The translations under genes and the position numbers were made by a program. Below the pieces are notes generated by a model, which saw only the letters and a program-made list of their open reading frames with translations, did no database searches and had not been told where the DNA came from. From Acidobacteriota bacterium (GTDB lineage: Bacteria; Acidobacteriota; Terriglobia; Terriglobales; SCQP01), in NCBI GenBank assembly GCA_004299485.1, contig SCQP01000002.1, positions 232,966 through 296,965 on the forward strand: 64,000 nucleotides of DNA. Reading direction: 5' to 3'. Of the stretch, positions 7,050 through 60,296 are shown one piece after another. Each line of letters starts with the position of its first letter. Position 1 is the first letter of the stretch.

Positions 7050-8489
7050 ATGGCGCTCGATACCGAGATTTTTGAACAGCGGCAGGCCAAGCTGGCCGAG
7101 CTGGCGGCGCAGGGCGGGGAAGCCTATCCGCACCGCTTTGCCTTCAGCCATACCGTGCCGCAAGTGCTGGCAACGTATGGCGAAACCAGCGGCGAGGCGC
7201 TCGAGGGCGAGCGCCCGGAGGTCAAGATCTGCGGGCGCCTGATGACCTTCCGGCCGCACGGTAAGGCGGGATTTGGCCACCTGCAGCAGGACGGCACGCA
7301 ACTGCAGATCTATGTCCGCCAGGATGCCGTCGATGAAGCCTCGTTCACGCTCTGGAAGTCCCTCGATCTCGGCGATTTGATCGGTGTTGAGGGCTATTTG
7401 TTCCGCACGCGCACGGGCGAGCTGACCGTGCATGTCACCCGCGTCAAGTTGCTGGCCAAAGATCTGCTGCCGCTGCCGGAAAAATGGCACGGCCTCACCG
7501 ACGTGGAGGCGCGCTACCGCCAGCGCTACCTCGACCTGCTGGTGAACCCGGAGGTACGCGAGATCTTCTTGAAGCGCGCCAGGCTGGTGGCTAGCTTGAG
7601 GGATCTATTCCATCAGCGCGGATACATTGAAGTCGAAACCCCGATGATGCAACCGCTCGCGGGCGGCGCTACGGCGCGGCCCTTCAAGACGCACCATCAG
7701 GCGCTCGACATTCCGCTGTATCTGCGCATCGCCCCCGAGCTGTATCTGAAGCGGCTGGTGGTTGGCGGCATGGACCGGGTGTTTGAGATCAACCGCAACT
7801 TTCGCAACGAGGGCATCTCGACGCAGCACAACCCCGAGTTCACCATGCTGGAGTTCTATGAGGCCTACAGCGACTACAACGTGCTCATGGACTGGAGCGC
7901 GGAGTTGCTGGCGGAAGTGGCGCGCCAAGTGGCCGGCAGCGAGAGAGTCAGCTTCCGTGGTGCCGAGGTGGATTTCGGCAATTTCCGGCGCCTGAGCCTG
8001 CGGGATGCAGTTCTGGAGTTCTGGCCGGCCGAGCGTGGGCCCAAGCCGCGCCGCGAGGAGCTGGAGGGCGCGCAGGCGGTTGAGCTGTTCGAGCAGGTGG
8101 CCGAGCGGCATCTCGTGCAGCCCACGATCATTTACGATTTTCCAATCGAAGTCTCGCCGCTGGCCAAGAACAAGCCGGACGAGCCGGCCTGGGTCGAGCG
8201 TTTTGAGATTTATGCGGGCGGTATGGAGATTGCCAACGGCTACAGTGAGCTGAACGATCCGGAAGAGCAGCGTCGGCGCTTCGAGCAGCAATTGGCGGCG
8301 CGCGAACGGGGCGATGAAGAGGCTCATGTGCTGGACGAGGACTACGTCCGCGCCCTGCGCTACGGCATGCCGCCGACGGCAGGCGAAGGCATCGGCATTG
8401 ACCGGCTGACGATGCTGCTCACCGGCGCGCCTTCGATCCGTGACGTGATTCTGTTCCCGCTGCTGCGGCCGGAGAGCGAGCGTGCCTGA
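7050..8489 (+). CDS. lysS: Lysine--tRNA ligase (class II)
   Basis: OB-fold N-domain, FRNEGIS (motif 2) and GIGIDRLTML (motif 3). I chose ATG 7050 over the in-frame start at 6936, which would overlap the divergent peptidase gene. Confidence 0.93.
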   Translation: MALDTEIFEQRQAKLAELAAQGGEAYPHRFAFSHTVPQVLATYGETSGEALEGERPEVKICGRLMTFRPHGKAGFGHLQQDGTQLQIYVRQDAVDEASFTLWKSLDLGDLIGVEGYLFRTRTGELTVHVTRVKLLAKDLLPLPEKWHGLTDVEARYRQRYLDLLVNPEVREIFLKRARLVASLRDLFHQRGYIEVETPMMQPLAGGATARPFKTHHQALDIPLYLRIAPELYLKRLVVGGMDRVFEINRNFRNEGISTQHNPEFTMLEFYEAYSDYNVLMDWSAELLAEVARQVAGSERVSFRGAEVDFGNFRRLSLRDAVLEFWPAERGPKPRREELEGAQAVELFEQVAERHLVQPTIIYDFPIEVSPLAKNKPDEPAWVERFEIYAGGMEIANGYSELNDPEEQRRRFEQQLAARERGDEEAHVLDEDYVRALRYGMPPTAGEGIGIDRLTMLLTGAPSIRDVILFPLLRPESERA

Positions 8490-11023: not shown

Positions 11024-11253
11024 GCATTGACCTCGACCTGCTCTAGCGCGACAAACTTCATGGCGGGCGCGTCCTGTTCCGCCAGGCAGAGAGCGATCAC
11101 CTCGCGTATGCGCGGCGCCAGGGCGGATAGAGTCCGCGCCTGCGTATAGCAACTCGGGATCGACGGCACGCTGGCGACGAAGTAGCCATCTTCGTCCTGC
11201 TCGATGACAACGGTGAATTGCCGCGCCTTGCGCTTCGTTCCAACCTTGCCCAT
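11020..11253 (-). CDS. hicB: HicB-family (UPF0150) antitoxin
   Basis: FTVVIEQDEDGYFVASVPSIPSCYTQARTLSALAPRIREVIALCLAE is a typical HicB N-domain. It lies immediately upstream of hicA. Confidence 0.75.
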   Translation of the reverse strand: MGKVGTKRKARQFTVVIEQDEDGYFVASVPSIPSCYTQARTLSALAPRIREVIALCLAEQDAPAMKFVALEQVEVNA

Positions 11254-13476: not shown

Positions 13477-16116
13477 TCAGTGGCCGGGGGCCAGGGTCCA
13501 GTTGGACTCGACGGCTTGAAAGACCCCTGACAGCGCTGAGTCCAATTGGGCGGGGTCGGCGCCGCCGGCTTCGGCGAGCTCGGGACGGCCTCCGCCCTTG
13601 ATGCCCGGGAGGGCCTTGAGAATCGCTCCCGCAGGCAGCCGGGGCGCTAAATCCGGCGTGACGGCTACGATCAGGGCGAATTTCTCGCCCTGCACACCGC
13701 CGAACGCGACCACGCCGCTGCCCAACTTCTGCCGCGCCTGGTCGGCCAGCACGCGCATTTCGGCGCGGTCGAGATCGTCTACGCGCTGGGTGACTACTTT
13801 GATTCCCTGAATCTCGCGCTGCTGGCGTGCCGCGCCGGCGCCGCCTGCTGCCGCTTGCATTTTCAGACGCCGAATCTCCGCCTGCGCCTGATGCAATTGG
13901 TCGAGCGAGCGTTCGGCCGCGGCAACCAGTTCCGGTTCGGTGGTGTGCAGCAGGGCCGTCAACTGGTGCACGCGTTGGCTCGCCGCCTGGGCCAGTTCAT
14001 ACGCGCCCAGGCCGGTGACGGCCTCAATACGGCGGATGCCGGCCGCGACGCTGGTCTCGTAAACAATCTTGAACAGGCCGATGTCGCCGGTGTGATGGGT
14101 GTGCGTGCCGCCGCAAAGCTCCTGACTGAAGCCGGGCACCGTGACCACGCGCACCTGCTGCTGATACTTTTCGCCAAACAGCGCCATCGCGCCGGTGGCC
14201 AGGGCTTCGTCGAGCGGCATGATCCGCGTCTCGACCGGCGCGTTTTTGAGGATCTCGGTGTTTACCAGCCGTTCGATCTCTTCAAGCTGTGCGGGCGAGA
14301 TCGGGGTGAAGTGGGTGAAATCAAACCGCAAGCGGCCCGGCTCAACCACCGATCCGGCCTGCTTCACGTGCGTTCCCAATACCTGCCGCAGCGCCGCGTG
14401 GAGCAGGTGCGTGGCCGTATGGTTGCGCCGGGTGGCGTCGCGGCGCTCGACGTCGACCATGGCCTCGACGTGCTCGCCGGGTTGCAGCGTCTGTTTGGCG
14501 CGAATGCGATGCACGTTCAATCCGCTGACGGGCGCATAGGTATCGAGTACCTCGGCCGCCAGGCCAGCGGCGGTGGTCCAGATGCCACGATCACCAATCT
14601 GGCCGCCGCTTGCGGCATAAAAGGGCGTGTGATCCAGTACGGCTTCGAGTTCCGCGCCCGGCTCGGCGCTCGCGACCGGCTGGCCGTCGCGCAGCAGCGC
14701 CCGAATGGTCGCGTCGGGGCTATCGGTCGATTCGTAGCCGTCAAAGCGGGTGCGCCCGGCGGCCACCAGCTCTTGGTACACGCCGCTGGCGCTCGCCTGT
14801 TGGCCACCTTTCCAGCTCGCCCGCGCGCGCTCGCGCTGTTCCGCCATGGCGGTTTCGAAACCGGCCTCGTCAATACAGAAGTGCCGCTCGCCGGCGATCT
14901 CGCGGATCACATCCAGCGGCAATCCGAAGGTGTCGTACAGCCGGAAGGCTTCGGCGCCTGCCAGCCGTTTCGGATCGGCGGCGAGCGATTTTTCCAGCTC
15001 GTTCAGCGCCAGCGCCAGCGTATGGGCGAAGCGGTCTTCTTCCGCCTTGAGCACTTCAGCCACGCGCGCGCGGCTGTCGTTCAGCTCGGGATAAGCCGGC
15101 GCCATTACATCCGTCACTGTGCCGGCCAGTGCATACAGAAACGCCTCTTCGAGCCCTATCGTCCGGCCGTGACGCAGCGCCCGGCGGATAATTTTCCGCA
15201 GCACATAGCCCCGCCCTTCATTCGCTGGCAGCACGCCATCGTGAATCAGGAACGTCGACGCGCGCGCATGATCGGCCAGAATGCGAAGCGCGATGTCGCT
15301 TTTTTCCCCGACGCCATAGCGCACGCCGGCGCGTTCGCCCGCGGCCGCGATAATTGGCTGGAACAAGTCGGTATCGTAGTTGCTGATCTTGCCCTGCAGC
15401 ACGGCAGCGAGGCGCTCCAGCCCTGCTCCGGTATCGATCGAGGGCCGCGGCAGCGGCGTCATCTTGCCACTGGCATCGCGCTCGAATTGCATGAAGACCA
15501 GGTTCCAGATCTCGACGTAGCGGCCGCAGTCGCAGGGAAAGCGGCAATCCTTGTGCCCCTGCTCGCTGGCCTCGGGACCCTGATCATAGTGCAGCTCCGA
15601 GCATGGCCCGCACGGCCCGGTATCGCCCATGGCCCAAAAGTTTTCCGTCGCGCCCAGCCGGAAGACTTTATCCGCTGGCAGGCCAATCTTCTGCCGCCAA
15701 ATCGCTTCGGCCTGGTCGTCGTCTTCGTATACGGTGGCGTACAAGAGTTTTTCGGGAAGGCCAAAGTCCTTGGTCAGCAGCTCCCAGGCAAAAGGAATCG
15801 CTTCATCTTTGAAGTAGTCGCCGAAGCTGAAATTGCCCAGCATCTCGAAAAACGTGTGGTGCCGATGCGTGAAGCCGACGTTCTCAAGATCGTTATGCTT
15901 GCCGCCGGCTCGCACGCACTTCTGCACCGAGACCGCACTCACGTAATCGCGCTTTTCCTGCCCCAGAAACACGTTCTTGAACTGGTTCATCCCGGCATTG
16001 GTGAACAGCAGCGTCGGATCGCCCTGCGGCACAAGGGATGAAGAGGGGACGGCGCGGTGTCCGCGTGCCTCGAAAAATTCCAGAAAGCGCCGCCGGATTT
16101 CGGTGCTGGAAGGCAT
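13477..16116 (-). CDS. alaS: Alanine--tRNA ligase
   Basis: 879 aa. FTNAGMNQFK, the editing-domain HTATHLLH...CGGTH, and a C-terminal DHHA1-like GGGRPELAEAGG. Confidence 0.95.
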   Translation of the reverse strand: MPSSTEIRRRFLEFFEARGHRAVPSSSLVPQGDPTLLFTNAGMNQFKNVFLGQEKRDYVSAVSVQKCVRAGGKHNDLENVGFTHRHHTFFEMLGNFSFGDYFKDEAIPFAWELLTKDFGLPEKLLYATVYEDDDQAEAIWRQKIGLPADKVFRLGATENFWAMGDTGPCGPCSELHYDQGPEASEQGHKDCRFPCDCGRYVEIWNLVFMQFERDASGKMTPLPRPSIDTGAGLERLAAVLQGKISNYDTDLFQPIIAAAGERAGVRYGVGEKSDIALRILADHARASTFLIHDGVLPANEGRGYVLRKIIRRALRHGRTIGLEEAFLYALAGTVTDVMAPAYPELNDSRARVAEVLKAEEDRFAHTLALALNELEKSLAADPKRLAGAEAFRLYDTFGLPLDVIREIAGERHFCIDEAGFETAMAEQRERARASWKGGQQASASGVYQELVAAGRTRFDGYESTDSPDATIRALLRDGQPVASAEPGAELEAVLDHTPFYAASGGQIGDRGIWTTAAGLAAEVLDTYAPVSGLNVHRIRAKQTLQPGEHVEAMVDVERRDATRRNHTATHLLHAALRQVLGTHVKQAGSVVEPGRLRFDFTHFTPISPAQLEEIERLVNTEILKNAPVETRIMPLDEALATGAMALFGEKYQQQVRVVTVPGFSQELCGGTHTHHTGDIGLFKIVYETSVAAGIRRIEAVTGLGAYELAQAASQRVHQLTALLHTTEPELVAAAERSLDQLHQAQAEIRRLKMQAAAGGAGAARQQREIQGIKVVTQRVDDLDRAEMRVLADQARQKLGSGVVAFGGVQGEKFALIVAVTPDLAPRLPAGAILKALPGIKGGGRPELAEAGGADPAQLDSALSGVFQAVESNWTLAPGH

Positions 16117-16119
16117 AAG

Positions 16120-16147
16120 TTAACAGTTTACAGTTTACAGTTCACAG
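16120..16147 (-). repeat. Four tandem heptamers CTGTGAA CTGTAAA CTGTAAA CTGTTAA ending 3 nt before the alaS ATG
   Basis: Read directly on the minus strand. No SD lies between the array and the start codon. Confidence 0.9.
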
Positions 16148-16195
16148 CAAAACGCCCCGATCTGCACAGGGACCGGGCCGTTGTCGCTGAATTGA

Positions 16196-16226
16196 GCGCC
16201 ACGCGGGTGGCGTGGCGCAGCCACGC
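16196..16226 (-). other. GC hairpin with alternative pairing partner, between the BNR gene stop and the alaS leader
   Basis: GCGCCACGC (16196-16204) pairs with GCGTGGCGC (16210-18) as a 9-bp stem. A third segment, CCACGC (16221-26), could pair with GCGTGG instead. Confidence 0.5.
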
Positions 16227-16248
16227 CAGGCTCCGCGCAGTCAAATGT

Positions 16249-19200
16249 TTACGGCTGTGAACTGACCGTCACCGGTGCCAGCTTGTTCTGCTGCAGCAGG
16301 GCGTTGAAAGCCACGATGTCCTTGGCCTGCAGCTCCCGCCAGGCGGCGAGCTGGGCATCGAGTTGGCTGCGCAGAAGGCTGTAGACCTCAATCGAACCTT
16401 GCTGCGGCGCGCAGGTGCATTCTTCGACGCGGCCGCCGAGAACAGCCAGCTTGTTGTCGAGCATGATGGGAAAGTTGAGCGGATCCTCCCCGCTCTTGTT
16501 ATCGAGATTGCTGATCTTGTAAATCGCCGTGTGCAGCTTGCCGTGCAGCAAGTTGCCCGCTGCCTGCACCGAAGCCGGCGCCGAGGTGTCGACCCGCGCG
16601 ATCTGAGTTTGCAGGGCCAGCATCTGCCGCACCGCGCCCCAGGCTTGGGTCAGGTCGTGGTTGATCTTTACCGCCAAATCCCACTGGGCGACCAGATCGG
16701 CATGCGTGGCATGCAGGCGGGGATCGAGCGTCACCGTCAGCGGTTGGCTGTACGATTGCCCGTCCACCGTCAGCTTCACCGTGTACTCGCCGGTCGGAAC
16801 AATAGGCGTGACGCCGCCGCGCGCGCCCCACAGCACTTCGCCCTTGATCGGCTCGGGCGCGGTCAGCGCCTCCAGGTTCCAGGTGAAGCGGTTGAAACCC
16901 TGCTTATTGGGTACGGTGACGCCGTGCCGGAAAAAGCGCGCGAAGCCGCCGCGTTCGCCGCCGCTATTGGCGCGCGGTTTGGGGTTGTTGGCGCTGCTGA
17001 AGCTCTTCATCACTTCGCCCTGCGCGTTGGTGACGGTGATTTCTACCGGCCCTTGCGGCGGCTGCGCGAGGTAGTAGTCAATCACGGCCGGTCCGGGAGG
17101 GTTCTGCGCCACGCTGCCGCCGCGCTCAAAGAAGTCGAAGCCGCCGCCAAAGGTGCGTCTGGCCGGCTCGGGCTTAAATAGCGTCGCCTGCGTTGAGGCA
17201 GTGGCCGGTTTCCATTGCCGCAGCGGCGTGATGTCGTCCAGGCTCCAGAAGGCGCGGCCGTGCGTAGCCAGCACCAGGTCGTTGTCATGCACCTCGAGAT
17301 CGCGTACGGAAACGTGCGGCAGGTTCAACTGCAGCGGCTGCCACTGCGCGCCGTTGTCGAAGCTGACGAAGACGCCGCGCTCGGTGCCGGCAAACAGCAG
17401 CCCTTTGCGCACCGTGTCGGGCGCAACTTTCTGCACGTAGTAGCCGTCGGGAATGCCGTTGGTGATCTTCGTCCAGGTCTGGCCGCAATCGTCGGTGCGG
17501 TAGGCGTAGGGCGCGAAGTCATCGAGCTTGTTGCGCCGCGCAGCCACGTAGGCTGTGCAGGCCGCAAAGGGTGACGCGGCGATGTTGCCGATTTTGGCCC
17601 ACTGGTGATCGGGCGCTTTGAGATCAGCCGGCGTCACGTCGCTCCAGTTCTTGCCGCCATCGCGCGTGATGTGGATCAGGCCGTCGTCGCTGCCCGCCCA
17701 GAGGATGCCTTTTTGCACCGGCGAGACGGCAACCGAGAAGATGACGTCATAATATTCGGCGCTGGTGTTGTCCTGCGTGATTGGCCCGCCGGAGGAGATC
17801 TGCTTCGATTTGTCGTTGCGGGTTAAATCCGGGCTGATGATCTGCCAGTGATCGCCCATGTCCGTGCTCTTGAACAGCATCTGCGCGCCATAGAAGACCA
17901 CATTGGGATTCCAGGGTGAAGTTGCAATCGGCGCCGTCCACTGGAAGCGATATTTCATGTCAATGTCGCCGTGGCCCATGGGGTTATCGGGCCAGGGGCC
18001 GATGGGCACCGACAAGCCCATCTTCACGTTGTAGCGCGACATGTCGCCGTCATAGGACTCGCCATAGACGATATTCGAGTCATTCGGTTTGGGTACCAGC
18101 CAACCGCTCTCGCCGCCGGAGGCGCCGTACTGATCCTGTGGGCCAATGAAGCCATGATTGGTGCGGCTGGCGATGACCACCGAGCCGGCATCCTGCTTCT
18201 CGCCGTAGAGGTGATAGTTCACGTCGTTGTCGGTGGCGATGGAATAGAACTGGCCGGTGGGCTGGTTCAGATTGGTCGACCAATTCTTGCCGTTGTCGAG
18301 TGAAATGAAAGCGCCTTCGTCCGAGCTGGTGATGAAGTGCGTCGGAGTTTCGGGATCAATCCAGAAGCCGTGGCTATCGCCGCCATGAATCGTCTTGAAT
18401 TTCACCCCGCCATCGGTCGAACGGTACAGGCCCGTGTTCTCGACATAGACCATATCGTTGCTCTTGGGATCAGCAAAAATATGCGTGAAGTACCAGGCGC
18501 GCTGCCGGTACTGGTCACTGTCATTCACCAGCTTCCAGGTGGCGCCAGCGTCGTTCGATACATACAAGCCGCCGTCCTTGGCCTCTATCAGCGCATAGAC
18601 GCGCTGACCGTTCGGCGCAGCGGCTACGCCGATTTTGCCCCACACGCCACCCGGCAAGCCATGGCCGGCGACCTGGGTCCAGGTGTTGCCTCCGTCAATC
18701 GACTTGTACAGGCCGCTGCCCGGGCCGCCGCTATCGGCGCGCCAGGGCAGGCGGACGAACTGGTACAGCGCGGCATAAAGAATCTGCGGATTCTGCGGAT
18801 CGAAGACAACATCCACGCCCCCGGTCTTGTCGTTCTTGTACAGGACCTTCTCCCAGGTTTTGCCACCGTCGGTGGTGCGGAAAATGCCGCGCTGGGCGTT
18901 CGGGCCGGAAGCGTGCCCCATCGCCGCCACGAACACGCGGTTCGGATCGTGTGGGTCGATGACGACGTGCGCGATGTGCTGGGTGTCGTCGAGGCCGATG
19001 TGCTCCCAGGTCTTGCCGCCATCGGTGGATTTGTACATGCCGTCGCCGTACGAGATGTCATTGCGCAGGCAGGCCTCGCCGGTGCCGACATAAATTGTGT
19101 TGGGGTCGGAGGGCGCGACTTCGAGCGCGCCAATCGACTGCACCGGCTCGCGGTCAAACAGCGGCTTCCAGCTCTTGCCGGCGTCGGTAGTCTTCCACAC

Positions 19201-19431
19201 TCCTCCATCCACCGAGCCGAAGTACCAGACGTCGGGGTTGCCGACCACCCCGCTGACCGCCTCGGTACGCGCGCCGTTATAGGGTCCGACCAGGCGATAA
19301 TGCAGGTTCGCCAGGACTTGATTGATGCCGCCGCCCGATTGGGCGTGAGCCGGTAAAGCCCGGGTTCCCATCCAGCCCGCAACCGCGAGTGCTGCTCCGG
19401 CCGCCACACCCATGACAATGTTTCGCTTCAT
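16249..19431 (-). CDS. Secreted sortilin/VPS10-like double beta-propeller protein with many BNR/Asp-box repeats
   Basis: More than 10 Asp-boxes (TTDAGKSWKPL, STDGGKTWEHI, TTDGGKTWEKV, SIDGGNTWTQV and others). I chose ATG 19431 (MKRNIVMGVAAGAALAVAG signal peptide) over 19539. Confidence 0.8.
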   Translation of the reverse strand: MKRNIVMGVAAGAALAVAGWMGTRALPAHAQSGGGINQVLANLHYRLVGPYNGARTEAVSGVVGNPDVWYFGSVDGGVWKTTDAGKSWKPLFDREPVQSIGALEVAPSDPNTIYVGTGEACLRNDISYGDGMYKSTDGGKTWEHIGLDDTQHIAHVVIDPHDPNRVFVAAMGHASGPNAQRGIFRTTDGGKTWEKVLYKNDKTGGVDVVFDPQNPQILYAALYQFVRLPWRADSGGPGSGLYKSIDGGNTWTQVAGHGLPGGVWGKIGVAAAPNGQRVYALIEAKDGGLYVSNDAGATWKLVNDSDQYRQRAWYFTHIFADPKSNDMVYVENTGLYRSTDGGVKFKTIHGGDSHGFWIDPETPTHFITSSDEGAFISLDNGKNWSTNLNQPTGQFYSIATDNDVNYHLYGEKQDAGSVVIASRTNHGFIGPQDQYGASGGESGWLVPKPNDSNIVYGESYDGDMSRYNVKMGLSVPIGPWPDNPMGHGDIDMKYRFQWTAPIATSPWNPNVVFYGAQMLFKSTDMGDHWQIISPDLTRNDKSKQISSGGPITQDNTSAEYYDVIFSVAVSPVQKGILWAGSDDGLIHITRDGGKNWSDVTPADLKAPDHQWAKIGNIAASPFAACTAYVAARRNKLDDFAPYAYRTDDCGQTWTKITNGIPDGYYVQKVAPDTVRKGLLFAGTERGVFVSFDNGAQWQPLQLNLPHVSVRDLEVHDNDLVLATHGRAFWSLDDITPLRQWKPATASTQATLFKPEPARRTFGGGFDFFERGGSVAQNPPGPAVIDYYLAQPPQGPVEITVTNAQGEVMKSFSSANNPKPRANSGGERGGFARFFRHGVTVPNKQGFNRFTWNLEALTAPEPIKGEVLWGARGGVTPIVPTGEYTVKLTVDGQSYSQPLTVTLDPRLHATHADLVAQWDLAVKINHDLTQAWGAVRQMLALQTQIARVDTSAPASVQAAGNLLHGKLHTAIYKISNLDNKSGEDPLNFPIMLDNKLAVLGGRVEECTCAPQQGSIEVYSLLRSQLDAQLAAWRELQAKDIVAFNALLQQNKLAPVTVSSQP

Positions 19432-37148: not shown

Positions 37149-37176
37149 CTGTAAGCTGTAAACTGTAAACTGTAAG
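37149..37176 (+). repeat. Four tandem heptamers CTGTAAG CTGTAAA CTGTAAA CTGTAAG, 10 nt before ATG 37187
   Basis: Read directly. Followed by CTTTTTTCTT and then ATG. No SD. Confidence 0.9.
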
Positions 37177-37186
37177 CTTTTTTCTT

Positions 37187-37429
37187 ATGTTCATCGAGAA
37201 ACTGGAGCCTGTGGCGGCGCGCGCCGCGATTGCGGCCGGCCGTCAGGTGTACGAATGGAAAACTAAGGATCCGCATCAGTTGCCGATTGTGGGTCCCGCC
37301 TACGACGACCACCCCGGCCGTAACCGGGCCAAGCGCGAAGGCCGCTATGCGGAAACCCTCGAGCAGGCGCAGGCTGTGGCGCACACCATGAATACGGAGA
37401 TAGTGCAGGCCTTCTTTCTCTCGGAGTAG
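37187..37429 (+). CDS. Hypothetical 80-aa protein
   Basis: GC3-rich ORF between rne and pdxS. It is preceded by the same 4x CTGTAAA-type leader found upstream of alaS and queD. Confidence 0.45.
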
Positions 37430-38321: not shown

Positions 38322-38912
38322 GTGTCTCCGAAAATTGGCGTCCTGGCCCTGCAGGGCGATTTTGCCGCCCATGGCGATGCCTTGCGCCGCGAAGGCTGCG
38401 AAGTCGTGTGGGTGAAGCGCTCTGCGGATTTGAAGGACCTTGCCGGGCTGGTGCTGCCCGGCGGCGAGAGCACCACCATGCTGAACTTCCTCGCCGAGAA
38501 CGGTTTCGATCAGAAGCTGCGCGAGGCGGCCAGCCGCCTGCCCACCCTGGCGACCTGCGCGGGCGCCATTCTACTGGCTAAGCGCGTGCGTGCGCCCGAA
38601 CAGCCTTCCCTTGGCCTGCTGGACGTGACCGTGGTGCGCAATGCCTACGGCCGCCAGCGCGAAAGCTCCATTCGTACCGCCGAGGTCGATCCCGCGTTTC
38701 AGGAGACGCTCGGCGCGAAGCAACTCGAGGCAGTTCTGATCCGTGCTCCGCAGTTCGAGGAGCTGGGGCCTGCGGTCCAGGTGGTGGCGCGCGCCGAAGG
38801 CCTGCCAGTTCTGTTGCAGCAAGGCAATTGGATCGCCGCGAGCTTTCATCCGGAACTCTCGCCGCGATCGCAGGTGCATCGCTGGTTCTGTAAGCTGCTA
38901 AAATCCGCGTAA
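38322..38912 (+). CDS. pdxT: Pyridoxal 5'-phosphate synthase glutaminase subunit PdxT
   Basis: IGVLALQGDF, LVLPGGESTT, TCAGAILLA (catalytic Cys), FHPE. Confidence 0.92.
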   Translation: MSPKIGVLALQGDFAAHGDALRREGCEVVWVKRSADLKDLAGLVLPGGESTTMLNFLAENGFDQKLREAASRLPTLATCAGAILLAKRVRAPEQPSLGLLDVTVVRNAYGRQRESSIRTAEVDPAFQETLGAKQLEAVLIRAPQFEELGPAVQVVARAEGLPVLLQQGNWIAASFHPELSPRSQVHRWFCKLLKSA

Positions 38913-40192: not shown

Positions 40193-40249
40193 TCAGCGAT
40201 CAGCGTTCAGCCATGTCCGGCCGCCTCCGGCTGATGGCTGATGGCTGAT
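40193..40249. terminator. Inverted heptamer arrays (TCAGCGA TCAGCGT TCAGCCA / GGCTGAT x3) forming an imperfect long hairpin between convergent glgC and tlpA-like genes
   Basis: Left array 40193-40213, right array 40229-40249, 15-nt GC loop. A bidirectional terminator role is inferred from position only. Confidence 0.45.
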
Positions 40250-40266: not shown

Positions 40267-40794
40267 CTATTGGCGGGCGGTCTGCCGCTCCGACCGCGCC
40301 AGGCGCTGCAGGAAGGCAATCATATCCGGCGAGGTCCAGTTGGCCACGCTCACCAGTTTGCGCACTAACCGGCCATTGGGACCAATGATGTAGGTCTCGG
40401 GAATCTGCCGTGTTCCATAGCGGTGCATCACCTTCTGCGAAGGGTCGCGCGCAGTAGGATAGCGGATGTGGTAGCGCTCCAGAAAGGTGCGATAGGCCAC
40501 CGGATCTTCATCAATCGACACACCCAGCACAACGACTTGGCTCGAGGGGAGCTGCTGCGCCATGGTGTTCAGCGCCGGCGTCTCCTCAACGCAGGGCGGA
40601 CACCAGCTCGCCCAGAAATTCAGCACCAACACCCGGCCGCGATAGCTCGCCAGCGTAACTTCCTTGCCGTTCAGCAATCTAAGCTGAAAGCTGGGCACCG
40701 TTTGGCCCAGCCGCGCGCGCGAGCTGCAGCCACTCAGCCCAACCAGGCTCAGCAGTGCGGCTGTCGCGAGTGCCATTTGCAGAGTTCGTCGCAA
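40267..40794 (-). CDS. TlpA-like thioredoxin-fold thiol:disulfide oxidoreductase lipoprotein
   Basis: Lipobox LVGLSGC, active site [14 protein letters not shown] start at 40794; an in-frame ATG lies 6 codons downstream. Confidence 0.8.
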
Positions 40795-40815: not shown

Positions 40816-41403
40816 ATGCCTACCGAACTTGCGCCCAGGGCAAATACAGACTTGGTCCGCTCCCTGCTGGAGCAGTTGGGCGAAGATCCCAGTCGCGAAG
40901 GCCTGCAGCAGACCCCGGAGCGTTATGCCAAGGCCATGGCCTACCTGACCAGCGGTTACCGCACCGACCTGAACGCCATTCTCAGTAGTGCGCTGTTCAC
41001 GGTGGATTACGACGAGATGGTCATCGTGCGCGACATCGAGGTGTTCAGCCTCTGCGAGCACCACTTGCTGCCGTTTTTTGGCCGCTGCCATGTGGCGTAT
41101 CTGCCCAAGGGCAAGGTGCTGGGGCTGAGCAAAATCCCCCGTCTTGTGGACGCCTTTGCCCGCCGCCTGCAAGTGCAGGAGCGCCTCACCACCCAAATTG
41201 CCGAAACCTTGCAGGATTGGATTCAGCCGCGCGGCGTCGGGGTGGTGATCGAAGCCCGGCACCTGTGCATGATGATGCGCGGGGTGGAAAAGCAGCACTC
41301 CTCCGCAGTGACCAGCCACATGCTGGGCCTGTTTCGCACCTGCGCCGAGACCCGTAGCGAGTTCCTCTCGCTCATCCGCAATAACAGCCCAGAGCGGAAC
41401 TAG
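40816..41403 (+). CDS. folE: GTP cyclohydrolase I
   Basis: [29 protein letters not shown] chose ATG 40816 over the spurious upstream extension that overlaps tlpA. Confidence 0.93.
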
Positions 41404-44973: not shown

Positions 44974-46116
44974 TTATGCGAGCGCCTGCGCGAGGTCGGC
45001 TTCGATGTCTTCGGCTTCTTCGATGCCGACCGATAGCCGCACCATGCCGTCGGTGATGCCAATGGCCGCGCGTCCTTCGGCACCGATGGCGGCGTGGGTC
45101 ATCGTTGCCGGGTGCGAAATCAGCGTTTCCACTCCGCCCAGACTCTCCGCTAGCGAGCACAGCCGCACCTTGCGCAGGATCTTCTGGGCGTTGTCAAACG
45201 AGCCGGTTTCGAGGGTGATCATCGATCCGAAGCCTGACATTTGCTTGCTGGCCAGCGCATGTTGCGGATGGCTTTCCAGTCCCGGATAGTAAACCGCCTT
45301 CACCTGCGGCTGCCGCGTCAGCCATGCCGCCAACCGCCGTCCATTGGCATCGTGCTGCCGCATGCGCACCGCCAGCGTCTTGACGCCCCGCAGTAGCAGG
45401 AAGCATTCGAACGGGCTCAGAATCGCGCCGCTGGCTTTCTGCAGAAAGCGGAAGTCCTCGGCCTGCTTCTCGTTTGACGCCATCACCACTCCGCCCAGCC
45501 CGTCGCTGTGGCCGTTCAGAAACTTTGTCGTCGAATGTACTTCCAGGTCCGCGCCTAGCGCCAGCGGCTGTTGAAAATACGGACTCATAAACGTGTTGTC
45601 GACCGCGAGTTCCGCGCCGTGCTTGTGCGCGATGGTGGCGCAGGCACGCAAATCGCACAGCTCCATCAGCGGATTCGTCGGCGTCTCGACAAACACCAGC
45701 CGTGTTTTCGCCTCAAATGCTTTTTCGATGCGTTCCGGCTCGCGCGTGTCCACGTAGCTGAAGCGCAGGCCAAACCGCGCCAGCACCTGATTGAACAGCC
45801 GGGGTGTACCGCCGTAGACGTTGCTGCCGCAGATCACATGGTCTCCGGCCGAAAGCCGCATCAGCACCGCGTGAATCGCCGCCATGCCGCTGGCAAATAC
45901 ATGCGCGCTGTGGCTGCCGGCGACCGCGGCCAGGTTCGTCTCCAGCGCGGTGCGCGTGGGATTGCTGACGCGCGAATACTCATAACCTTTGTTTTCGCCA
46001 ATTGCCGCCTGCACGTAGGTTGAGCTGGCAAAGATGGGCACGTTGACCGCGCCAGTCGAAGGATCAGGCGTTTGTCCTATATGAATGGCGCGTGAGGAAA
46101 ATCCAAGTGGGGTCAC
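44974..46116 (-). CDS. metB: Cys/Met-metabolism PLP enzyme (cystathionine gamma-synthase / beta-lyase family)
   Basis: SRAIHIGQTPDPSTGAVNVPIFASSTY. PLP-lysine motif HSTTKFLNGHSDGLGG. I chose GTG 46116 to give a family-typical N-terminus; the upstream extension to 46206 is unsupported. Confidence 0.85.
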   Translation of the reverse strand: MTPLGFSSRAIHIGQTPDPSTGAVNVPIFASSTYVQAAIGENKGYEYSRVSNPTRTALETNLAAVAGSHSAHVFASGMAAIHAVLMRLSAGDHVICGSNVYGGTPRLFNQVLARFGLRFSYVDTREPERIEKAFEAKTRLVFVETPTNPLMELCDLRACATIAHKHGAELAVDNTFMSPYFQQPLALGADLEVHSTTKFLNGHSDGLGGVVMASNEKQAEDFRFLQKASGAILSPFECFLLLRGVKTLAVRMRQHDANGRRLAAWLTRQPQVKAVYYPGLESHPQHALASKQMSGFGSMITLETGSFDNAQKILRKVRLCSLAESLGGVETLISHPATMTHAAIGAEGRAAIGITDGMVRLSVGIEEAEDIEADLAQALA

Positions 46117-50357: not shown

Positions 50358-50370
50358 AGCAGTAATCGGT

Positions 50371-50485
50371 TCTCAGTCATCAGTTTTCAGTTCGCAACCC
50401 GTAGGCCACCGGCTCAGCGCGGTGCACGGGGTTCGCCGCCGTGATGGATGACTGATTACTGATGACTAACGACTGAAAACTTTTT
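50371..50485 (+). terminator. Inverted ACTGAnn heptamer arrays flanking a GC-rich spacer, followed by a T-run; candidate terminator of the nfeD-SPFH-SPOR operon
   Basis: Left array TCTCAGT CATCAGT TTTCAGT (50371-91). Right array ACTGATT ACTGATG ACTAACG ACTGAAA (50451-78). Two alternative perfect 10-bp pairings exist: 50375-84 with 50458-67, or 50382-91 with 50472-81. The second is followed by TTTT (50482-85). Confidence 0.45.
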
Positions 50486-50789
50486 ACCGCAGCAACCTCA
50501 AAAGCGCTCCTGTCAACCCTCCCCACGCCGCCAGCTCGAGCGGCCGCGTGCCGCCCAGATTCGCTTCCAACCTGGCGATCCACGGAAGTTGAGCAAACGT
50601 AGCCCCGGATCGCGCCCCCCAGTGTTCTGGCGGTGTGAGCTGCGCATAGACAAACGCTACCCCGCCAGCCAGCAGACAGCGGCCGATACTCTCCATCCGC
50701 TTCCTTTTGGCGCCCGCCGCCGCCTCGATCAGGGCCGCGGCAACTACCCCCGTCGCCGCAATCAGCAAGTTCCTCTGCCAGCGCTCCAT
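50484..50789 (-). CDS. Hypothetical small membrane protein
   Basis: 101-aa ORF divergent from queD. Hydrophobic segments LLIAATGVVAAALIEAAAG and CLLAGGVAFVYA. No family recognised. Confidence 0.35.
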   Translation of the reverse strand: MERWQRNLLIAATGVVAAALIEAAAGAKRKRMESIGRCLLAGGVAFVYAQLTPPEHWGARSGATFAQLPWIARLEANLGGTRPLELAAWGGLTGALLRLLR

Positions 50790-50832: not shown

Positions 50833-50860
50833 CTGTAAACTGTAAACTGTTAACTGTAAA
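50833..50860 (+). repeat. Four tandem heptamers CTGTAAA CTGTAAA CTGTTAA CTGTAAA ending 5 nt before the queD ATG
   Basis: Read directly. Followed by CCTCC and then ATG 50866. No SD. Confidence 0.9.
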
Positions 50861-50865
50861 CCTCC

Positions 50866-51243
50866 ATGTTCTCCATCTCCGTCGAAGAGACCTTTTCCTC
50901 CGGTCATGCGCTGCGCGGCTATCGCGGCAAATGCGAGAATCCCCACGGCCACAACTATCGTGTACGCGTCCGGCTGCAAGGTCCGCGTCTGAACGGCATC
51001 GGCCTTTTGTATGACTTCAAAGACCTCAAGGGCTTCATCCGCCGCGAAACCGAGCAGTGGGACCACCAGTACCTGAACGACCTCGAACCCTTCCGCGAGC
51101 AAAACCCTTCCGCCGAAAATATGGCGCGTGAACTCTTTGAACGCCTGCAAAAGAGCCTCACCGGCAACGCCGAAGGTGTCGTGGTGGAATCTGTAACGGT
51201 GTTTGAAACCGATACCACGGCGGCCGTTTACAACGGCGAGTGA
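50866..51243 (+). CDS. queD: 6-carboxy-5,6,7,8-tetrahydropterin synthase
   Basis: SSGHALRGYRGKCENPHGHNYRV (Zn/His motif). 125 aa. Confidence 0.92.
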   Translation: MFSISVEETFSSGHALRGYRGKCENPHGHNYRVRVRLQGPRLNGIGLLYDFKDLKGFIRRETEQWDHQYLNDLEPFREQNPSAENMARELFERLQKSLTGNAEGVVVESVTVFETDTTAAVYNGE

Positions 51244-60105: not shown

Positions 60106-60176
60106 CCCAGCGGCTCTCAGCGGTCAGCAATGCAGCCGGCACAGGGCTGCAGCAAGCTGATCGCTGATGGCTGATC
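60106..60176 (+). repeat. Imperfect long hairpin built from inverted CAGC/GCTGAT units in the secD-secF intergenic region
   Basis: The left half carries CAGCG-type units. The central perfect stem is GCAGCC (60132-37) with GGCTGC (60144-49). The right half is GCTGATC GCTGATG GCTGATC (60156-76). Confidence 0.7.
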
Positions 60177-60296
60177 GCCTTGGTACGCAGAGGCAGGGAA
60201 CAAATTACACCCGCTCGGGGTCAGAAGGTGGTGAGGGCAACTCACCAGCCCACTCCGGGCGAGCGCGCTAGCGCTTGGAATATTTAAGGGCTGGAA

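Follow-up and report, generated by a model that had tools for sequence, protein, structure and literature searches.

We analysed a 64,000-nucleotide stretch of DNA from a soil acidobacterium of the order Terriglobales (assembly GCA_004299485.1, locus tags EPN33_*, 360-kb contig SCQP01000002.1, positions 232,966 to 296,965; hereafter the window), in which the alanine--tRNA ligase gene alaS is directly preceded by a tandem array of four seven-nucleotide units. alaS lies on the minus strand (13477..16116, 879 aa), and its product is 100% identical to a database protein, the alanine--tRNA ligase of an Acidobacteria metagenome-assembled genome (MAG), with the Pfam families tRNA-synt_2c/tRNA_SAD/DHHA1. 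On the same strand the array (16120..16147; found by reading the sequence, by a pattern scan and with Tandem Repeats Finder) consists of CTGTGAA (16147-16141), CTGTAAA (16140-16134), CTGTAAA (16133-16127) and CTGTTAA (16126-16120). Its 5′ flank is ggggcgttttg, and it is followed by a CTT pyrimidine spacer (16119-16117) and the ATG (16116-16114); Tandem Repeats Finder reports 16118-16147, period 7, 4.3 copies. GGAG, GAGG and AGGA are all absent from the 20 nt before the ATG, i.e. there is no Shine-Dalgarno (SD) sequence. Because an in-frame TAA lies one codon 5′ of it, the ATG at 16116 is the first possible start, and the AlaS N-terminus agrees with the annotated starts of orthologues. The original prediction, made from the letters of the sequence, had described this arrangement (four units, CTT, ATG 16116, no SD sequence) correctly in every detail. 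The alaS array was seen in this window alone; an exact-protein look-up with AlaS gave no record, and those with QueD and ORF80 gave short contigs.

A scan of the 64 kb with the pattern CTGTWAACTGTWAA (two units, ≤1 mismatch) found three sites, 16120-16147(-), 37149-37176(+) and 50833-50860(+), and none of 100 dinucleotide-preserving shuffles of the window sequence matched the two-unit pattern. All three arrays have four units and lie on the strand that encodes the next gene; their 3′ ends are 3, 10 and 5 nt from the ATG of alaS, of a gene that we call ORF80, and of queD, respectively. This bears out the claim that arrays of the same unit number and family stand at queD and at the open reading frame starting at 37187. 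The second array (37149..37176, plus strand) reads CTGTAAG CTGTAAA CTGTAAA CTGTAAG and is separated by the spacer CTTTTTTCTT (37177-37186) from ORF80 (37187..37429, plus strand), which encodes a conserved, clade-specific 80-aa protein and heads ORF80-pdxS-pdxT(-glgC). The third (50833..50860, plus strand) reads CTGTAAA CTGTAAA CTGTTAA CTGTAAA and is followed by CCTCC and the ATG (50866) of queD (50866..51243, plus strand; Pfam PTPS), which heads queD-queE-queC. An SD-like motif is absent at all three array-led starts, and pyrimidine tracts between array and ATG also occur at the starts other than alaS. The queD and ORF80 arrays were found again in independent assemblies from other samples and are therefore not assembly artefacts; this lineage or close relatives of it are present in the DNA samples SRR8426591, SRR25508661, SRR23961931 and SRR32826134. 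The three arrays share nothing in their flanking sequences, and for that reason a common mobile element as their carrier was rejected.

Within the three intergenic regions, hexamers of the form TANNNT occur inside the arrays only; the remaining parts are GC-rich and contain none. At alaS, TAAACT occurs twice, 15 and 8 nt from the ATG, and TAACTT adjoins the ATG (gap 0). ORF80 has TAAGCT or TAAACT 29, 22, 15 and 8 nt from its start, and queD has TAAACT 24 and 17 nt from its own. The alaS hexamer 8 nt from the ATG (16125..16130, minus strand) spans the junction of units 3 and 4, and we propose it as the -10 element. The bases after it are GTTAACTT. Positions 6-8 after the hexamer, where start sites usually fall, are pyrimidines without exception; the first purine beyond them is the A of the ATG, at position 9. 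The geometry at ORF80 is identical, with TAAGCT 8 nt before the start, followed by TTTTTCTT and the ATG. Both genes thus show the leaderless-type sigma-70 pattern (TANNNT 5-10 nt before the start, no SD sequence). At queD, TTAACT occupies -16..-11, a 10-nt gap, and the nearest strict TANNNT has a gap of 17 nt. queD is divergent from ORF101, a conserved 101-aa gene (50484..50789, minus strand) whose counterparts in all relatives match it from the first residue on (66-100% identity), so that the 76-nt intergenic region, 43 nt of which are GC-rich without a single TA dinucleotide, must hold the queD promoter. On the reverse strand the CTGTAAA junction reads TACAGT in all three arrays, which also fits TANNNT; judged by the hexamers, the arrays could be bidirectional sources of -10 elements, for example for ORF101 opposite queD. 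The arrays carry stop codons in all three forward frames and none on the reverse strand.

Upstream of the alaS array, a terminator scan found a hairpin (CCCGGTC...GATCGGG, 16177-16156, minus strand) followed by GCGTTTTG; this terminator-like element (16148..16177) abuts the array, the T-run stopping at the array's first base. Farther upstream lies a gene of the BNR/Sortilin-Vps10 family (16249..19431, minus strand), whose adjacency to alaS is conserved in relatives. The GC-rich hairpin with an alternative pairing partner that had been reported upstream of the array is indeed present at ~16196-16227 (minus strand), with two mutually exclusive pairings, GGCGTGG/CCACGCC and GCGCCACGC/GCGTGGCGC. 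It is not conserved: the upstream regions of relatives align no further than the -10/ATG. The hairpin looks like the 3′ end of the upstream gene rather than part of a regulatory leader of alaS. Its role as an alaS attenuator was rejected, as it sits 5′ of the terminator-like hairpin and is not conserved. A known structured RNA leader (riboswitch, T-box etc.) was discarded as well, since Rfam covariance models matched nowhere in the window at gathering thresholds, nor in 16000-16350 at E≤1.

We then compared alaS with its closest orthologues, which a protein search placed in seven loci from four genomes, all Terriglobales MAGs (83, 79, 79 and 76% AlaS identity). The CTGTAAA array is absent upstream of alaS in all seven. 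These genes carry instead a canonical -10 hexamer (TAGAAT, TAAGAT or TAGACT) 6-7 nt from the ATG, the signature of a leaderless mRNA: TATAGAAT-atagaa-ATG, TTAGAAT-gatggg-ATG, TAAGAT-aaaagg-ATG and TTAGACT-aatcaga-ATG. The sequences before the start read ggacTATAGAATatagaaATG in L201, gtctTAGAATgatgggATG in L202/L203, ggTAAGATaaaaggATG in L204 and ctTTAGACTaatcagaATG in L205-207. The expectation that the array would be conserved at alaS did not hold, and a lack of the array in orthologues is what the original prediction itself had named as counting against it. In L205-207 another heptad array (CCTAGCC CCTGATC CCTAACC CCTGACC) lies between a terminator and the -10 box, and the order in L205 (terminator, different heptad array, -10, ATG) is the same as at alaS in the window.

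More distant acidobacterial alaS loci gave a related picture. Among the matches listed in a metagenome scan there were 67 such loci, the best one listed being 69% identical. TANNNT occurred 5-10 nt before the start in 16 of the 67, whereas a control interval gave 4. A gap of 9 nt was the most frequent (cattTAGAAT-N9-ATG, the N9 having a pyrimidine-rich end). An SD-like motif was present in 23 of the 67 and coincided with the TANNNT signal in one locus (1/16). Some heptad array lay ≤100 nt upstream in ~10% of the acidobacterial alaS loci, with differing units and at about the general intergenic density. As these arrays are built of unrelated units and do not stand out from that density, an element specific to alaS was rejected. 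In four of the cattTAGAAT loci (L125, L128, L143 and L156) three tandem 10-nt repeats, YCCTCTGTGK, lie directly 5′ of the -10 box; they may be an operator or a -35-region element.

At queD, orthologues with and without the array could be compared. Three other assemblies of this species (QueD 100% identical) have the same four-unit array. A lineage sampled eight times (QueD 96%) has three units (ACTGTAAACTGTAAACTGTAAACTTCC ATG), and contigs sharing one identical QueD (88%) have six or seven degenerate units. A lineage at 85% (L222-224) has no array and reads cgcggTAGAATaaggtctccgATG. Its TAGAAT occupies -16..-11 of queD, the site of TAAACT in the three-unit lineage and of TTAACT in the window. 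Copy number was constant within lineages, with four units in 4/4 assemblies of the species and three in 8/8 of the 96% lineage, and the sole difference within one QueD sequence was six versus seven units. A phase-variation (contingency) locus was rejected on the grounds of this stability. Contrary to what had been supposed, the unit number is not fixed between lineages, given four units in the species, three at 96%, six or seven with an identical QueD and none at 85%.

At ORF80, all four units are retained in relatives with 98% identity, albeit with point substitutions; their last unit, CTGTAGA, creates TAGACT at 5 nt from the ATG. The array is missing in an 88% relative, and in 81% relatives the rne-ORF80 spacing is 11 nt and holds a GAGGG Shine-Dalgarno sequence. 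ORF80 itself has no Pfam match; 43 clusters were found, every given source name being Terriglobales or Acidobacteria MAG, and the gene lies between rne and pdxS in every fetched locus that reaches both neighbours. A fourth start-proximal array of the CTGTAAA family precedes secA in a related Terriglobales MAG (L082, 5140-5258): six CTGTWAA units in a divergent intergenic region, ending in TGcTAACTT 10 nt before an ATG that again has no SD-like motif. As at queD, the divergent arrangement means that the secA promoter must lie in that region. The 10-nt gap is thus common to queD, to this secA and to the array-less queD orthologue.

Leaderless-type starts are prevalent in the clade. SD sequences serve many other genes of the window, and clean leaderless-type starts stand beside them: TATAAT-6-ATG at 11253(-), TACAAT-6-ATG at 40816(+), TACAAT-7-GTG at 46116(-) and TAAAAT-7-ATG at glgC. 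The start at 40816(+) is divergent from a gene starting at 40776(-). Candidate starts of long, coding-like ORFs were counted in the window and in ten loci from the closest relatives: a preceding TANNNT stands most often 6 nt (15 cases) or 7 nt (8 cases) away, over a background of 3-4 per gap. The glgC box (38899-38904, before the ATG at 38912) overlaps a degenerate two-unit remnant, CTGTAAG CTGCTAA (38888..38904, plus strand), inside the 3′ end of pdxT. Relatives have TGnTACAAT (an extended -10) at the same place, 7-8 nt before the ATG, which suggests an internal leaderless promoter at glgC that is kept in the clade. The peak at 6-7 nt is in line with an in-silico estimate that puts leaderless genes at 9.7-19.4% in Acidobacteria (Zheng 2011, PMC3160421).

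The reading that we favour, with moderate confidence, is that an AT-rich heptad microsatellite forms part of the core promoter of alaS, queD and ORF80/pdxST and provides the -10-like hexamers from which leaderless or near-leaderless mRNAs are made. Each CTGTAAA|CT junction, spelling TAAACT (or TAAGCT), fits the minimal -10 TANNNT. From the sequence we infer that RNA polymerase uses the gene-nearest hexamer, at alaS the one 8 nt from the ATG, and begins transcription on the A of the ATG or only a few bases away from it. RNA polymerase prefers to start at a purine 7-9 nt after the -10. The resulting mRNA leader would measure 0-4 nt, or possibly ~10 nt for queD; with their 10-nt gap, the mRNAs of queD and of the L082 secA would have a leader of a few nucleotides. 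The units further upstream would fill the spacer and the -35 region. Slippage would let the copy number drift at the upstream side, leaving the 3′ edge of the array, and hence the distance from -10 to ATG, fixed. The copy number does change by whole units on that side with the 3′ edge in place, as expected of slippage in a promoter where selection maintains the -10 position. The SD sequence would be missing because a leaderless or near-leaderless mRNA needs none, with no special leader invoked. The case for the promoter reading is carried by the comparison with orthologues, by the queD and secA regions with their divergent genes, by the terminator that abuts the alaS array and by the lack of any other -10 candidate. 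The word 'leader', which the original prediction had used for the array, is probably wrong, as the anatomy would put most of it in untranscribed core-promoter DNA. The claim that the array is functional rather than junk fared better. The arrays are non-random, all three lie on the coding strand ≤10 nt from SD-less starts, and they are kept at queD and ORF80. Since non-random arrays stand before essential or housekeeping genes and persist at orthologous queD and ORF80 sites, plain junk is unlikely. The feature is real and statistically solid, and it is probably functional.

Several observations weigh against the promoter reading. A 7-nt period puts some hexamer 5-10 nt from the ATG in nearly any register, so that the agreement in phase carries little weight. 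At 8, 8 and 10 nt, the gaps before the array-led starts miss the clade peak of 6-7 nt; an 8-nt gap occurs with canonical boxes too, as in glgC of relatives (TACAAT 7-8 nt before the ATG). The hexamer at -16..-11 of queD in the window is TTAACT, without the conserved A at position 2, and use of a strict TANNNT would give a ~10-nt leader. In L219-221 the three queD-nearest units have no TANNNT, and part of the array would thus be transcribed. A scan for E. coli-type promoters called no -35/-10 pair at the arrays; as it also missed array-less controls, one with a perfect TAGAAT among them, it was dropped as uninformative for this clade. alaS and ORF80 lie on the same strand as their upstream genes, which makes read-through possible. 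Finally, one -10 box would suffice for a promoter, and the reading accounts neither for the repetition of the unit nor for its recurrence at four promoters.

Could the array instead be a transcribed, SD-independent translational leader? Transcription would then start upstream, and the AU-rich, unstructured array would recruit ribosomes directly or via S1 or a cold-shock-type protein; it would replace the SD sequence and could define a co-regulated gene set. All arrays lie on the coding strand, 3-13 nt from SD-less starts and followed by a pyrimidine tract, which is the layout of the TAACTGA repeats of Beggiatoaceae, for which a translational role has been proposed (PMC4679880). The forward stops in all three frames suit an intercistronic element, alaS and ORF80 could each share a transcript with the gene before them, and the queD-nearest units of L219-221, lacking -10-like hexamers, would be transcribed. 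However, none of the three intergenic regions has a -10-like hexamer 5′ of the array, yet queD needs a promoter of its own, and at alaS the terminator-like hairpin abuts the array. Moreover, the array-less orthologues of alaS and queD are leaderless-type and not long-leader genes, folding and Rfam found no structure or known RNA family at the array, and there is no known binding protein. We regard such a leader as possible but doubtful.

An unlikely explanation, in our view, is that the array is a tolerated slippage product, i.e. a near-neutral expansion of AT-rich promoter DNA that leaves the promoter intact and in which repetition and unit number have no function. Heptad microsatellites would arise and vary in length readily in this phylum, which shows a general bias towards them. 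In ~596 kb of acidobacterial loci (L121-L200, the nine relative loci L201, L202, L204, L205, L211, L219, L222, L233 and L234, and the window), tandem arrays of ≥3 copies numbered 33 for period 7, compared with 14, 6 and 12 for periods 6, 8 and 9, and the heptad units were very diverse. The differing arrays at ~10% of alaS loci agree with this, as do the gains and losses between relatives at 80-90% protein identity and the copy numbers of 3, 4, 6 or 7. But one unit, in one orientation and start-proximal, recurs at alaS, ORF80, queD and the relative's secA, none of which neutral slippage predicts. The queD array is also kept at its site down to 88% QueD identity, and the ORF80 array holds four units despite point substitutions. 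What speaks most strongly against pure neutrality is the recurrence of CTGTAAA at four promoters, which also leaves room for a sequence-specific binder (a protein or a sigma factor). A further explanation is an operator: a DNA-binding protein would coat the contiguous heptads, as the ribbon-helix-helix omega repressor does, and co-regulate alaS, queDEC, pdxST and others. Contiguous heptads overlapping core promoters, direct here and inverted elsewhere (L010; window 50360-50476), match the architecture of omega operators, and one unit at several promoters fits sequence-specific recognition. For Nostoc recO there are experimental hints of heptamer repeats modulating the action of NtcA and LexA (bioRxiv 10.1101/2022.06.06.494920). 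Yet no candidate protein was identified, none having been searched for; the CTGTAAA unit departs from WATCACW, the omega consensus, a single genome can carry many heptad units unrelated to one another, and the genes concerned have no obvious common regulation. We therefore consider an operator improbable.

The arrays belong to a described but mechanistically unexplained class. No report of such heptamer arrays in Acidobacteriota was found in the literature searched. The closest known case is the TAACTGA repeats of marine Beggiatoaceae, tandem heptamers in 2-6 copies that are mostly intergenic and point towards genes, with ~170 sets in the Guaymas Basin 'Maribeggiatoa' genome BOGUAY (MacGregor 2015, PMC4679880). 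They end a few nucleotides before start codons without a ribosome-binding site, essential genes included, and their function is experimentally untested (PMC4679880). The arrays described here are likewise tandem direct heptamers (four units at three sites in the window, 3-7 in relatives), lie in forward orientation near an SD-less start (3/3 in the window, at 3, 10 and 5 nt, and at the L082 secA) and have stop codons in all three forward frames, as does TAACTGA. They differ in the unit, which is (T/A)AACTGT, identical at 6/7 positions with a different last base; the architectural features are shared, strict identity of the unit is not. TAACTGA-like units (CTGATAA, CTGATAG) do occur in arrays of relatives (L150, L219). 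The host also belongs to another phylum (Acidobacteriota, Terriglobales) with a GC-rich genome (64%). TAAACT fits TANNNT, whereas TAACTG and ATAACT fit less well. The 64 kb read here contain three arrays and one degenerate remnant. While the TAACTGA study favours translation, the comparative evidence here points to the -10 region of leaderless-type promoters.

Cyanobacteria carry short tandemly repeated heptanucleotides with described units, known as STRR. These too are period-7 intergenic tandem arrays, and CTGTTAA/CTGTTGA arrays are abundant in filamentous cyanobacteria; here, in contrast, the host is a Terriglobales acidobacterium, and the cyanobacterial arrays are often much longer. In Nostoc, contiguous heptamers of 3-8 units lie within 30-100 nt of starts or -10 boxes and have modest regulatory effects (bioRxiv 10.1101/2022.06.06.494920). 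Promoters of leaderless genes with TANNNT ~6-7 nt before the start are described for Actinobacteria, Deinococcus and Acidobacteria (Zheng 2011, PMC3160421). The array-led starts resemble them in having a -10-like hexamer a few nucleotides before an SD-less ATG, with canonical boxes in orthologues and in other genes of the window; they differ in that the putative -10 is one of several phased copies in a tandem repeat, at a gap of 8-10 nt instead of 6-7. In Haemophilus influenzae, hmw1A and hmw2A reportedly have 7-bp repeats between promoter and start codon whose copy number slips, causing phase variation. Those are said to be longer arrays at hypervariable adhesin contingency loci, unlike the 3-7 units with stable copy number at housekeeping genes found here. 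The omega repressor of inc18 plasmids, a known cognate protein, binds contiguous 7-bp repeats, direct or inverted, that overlap promoters and have the consensus WATCACW; the unit here differs from it.

For the earlier heptamer arrays of Beggiatoaceae and cyanobacteria no mechanism has been established, and the proposals so far have been translational. What is new is comparative evidence that places arrays at the presumed -10 position of leaderless-type promoters. The lineage offers a comparative series at three genes, with array-bearing and array-less orthologues and 3, 4, 6 or 7 units. If the promoter reading is true, promoters of essential genes can have a microsatellite for their -10 region even in a GC-rich bacterium, and the earlier cases need to be re-read. 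If it is false, a real SD-independent leader would be equally informative on translation initiation in Acidobacteriota. A bolder version of the promoter reading, which we think rather unlikely, would make the array a promoter module that is portable and expands by itself: its -10 boxes, phased on either strand (TAAACT/TACAGT), would seed possibly bidirectional leaderless promoters, the module would spread between loci, and slippage would tune expression. On that view the related TAACTGA and STRR arrays known from Beggiatoaceae, cyanobacteria and Bacteroidota would not be translational signals but further instances of such a module.

Beyond the Acidobacteriota, a collection-wide scan for three consecutive CTGTWAA units returned, among the matches listed, mostly cyanobacteria (STRR-type) and Bacteroidales, as well as Poribacteria and Kiritimatiellae; the acidobacterial loci among them were L010, L035 and L082. 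The listed matches comprised 133 arrays from many phyla, mostly cyanobacterial. An ATG-led ORF lay ≤40 nt away in the forward direction in 17 and in the reverse direction in 9. Proximity to starts as a general trait of CTGTWAA arrays is thus unsupported across phyla, and because it is so weak in these 133 listed arrays, the start-proximal habit is lineage-specific.

Heptads also occur as inverted arrays. In L010, an acidobacterial MAG (7444-7489), four CTGTNAA units abut three inverted TTTACAG units in a perfect heptad palindrome with longer inverted flanks. In the window, CAGTNNT x4.7 (50360-50392) and its complement x4.3 (50447-50476) pair into a long, imperfect hairpin (-53.3 kcal/mol, z = -3.4). 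Lying where a SPOR-domain gene (end 50357) and ORF101 (end 50484) converge, and followed by a T-run, it looks like a terminator made of heptads. Two further inverted pairs, both of another unit family, lie at gene 3′ ends: one at ~40195-40249 (TCAGCG/ATCAGCG/TTCAGCC ... GGCTGAT x3) follows the glgC stop between convergent genes, the other is at ~60115-60178 (CTCAGCG GTCAGCA ... GCTGATC x3.3).

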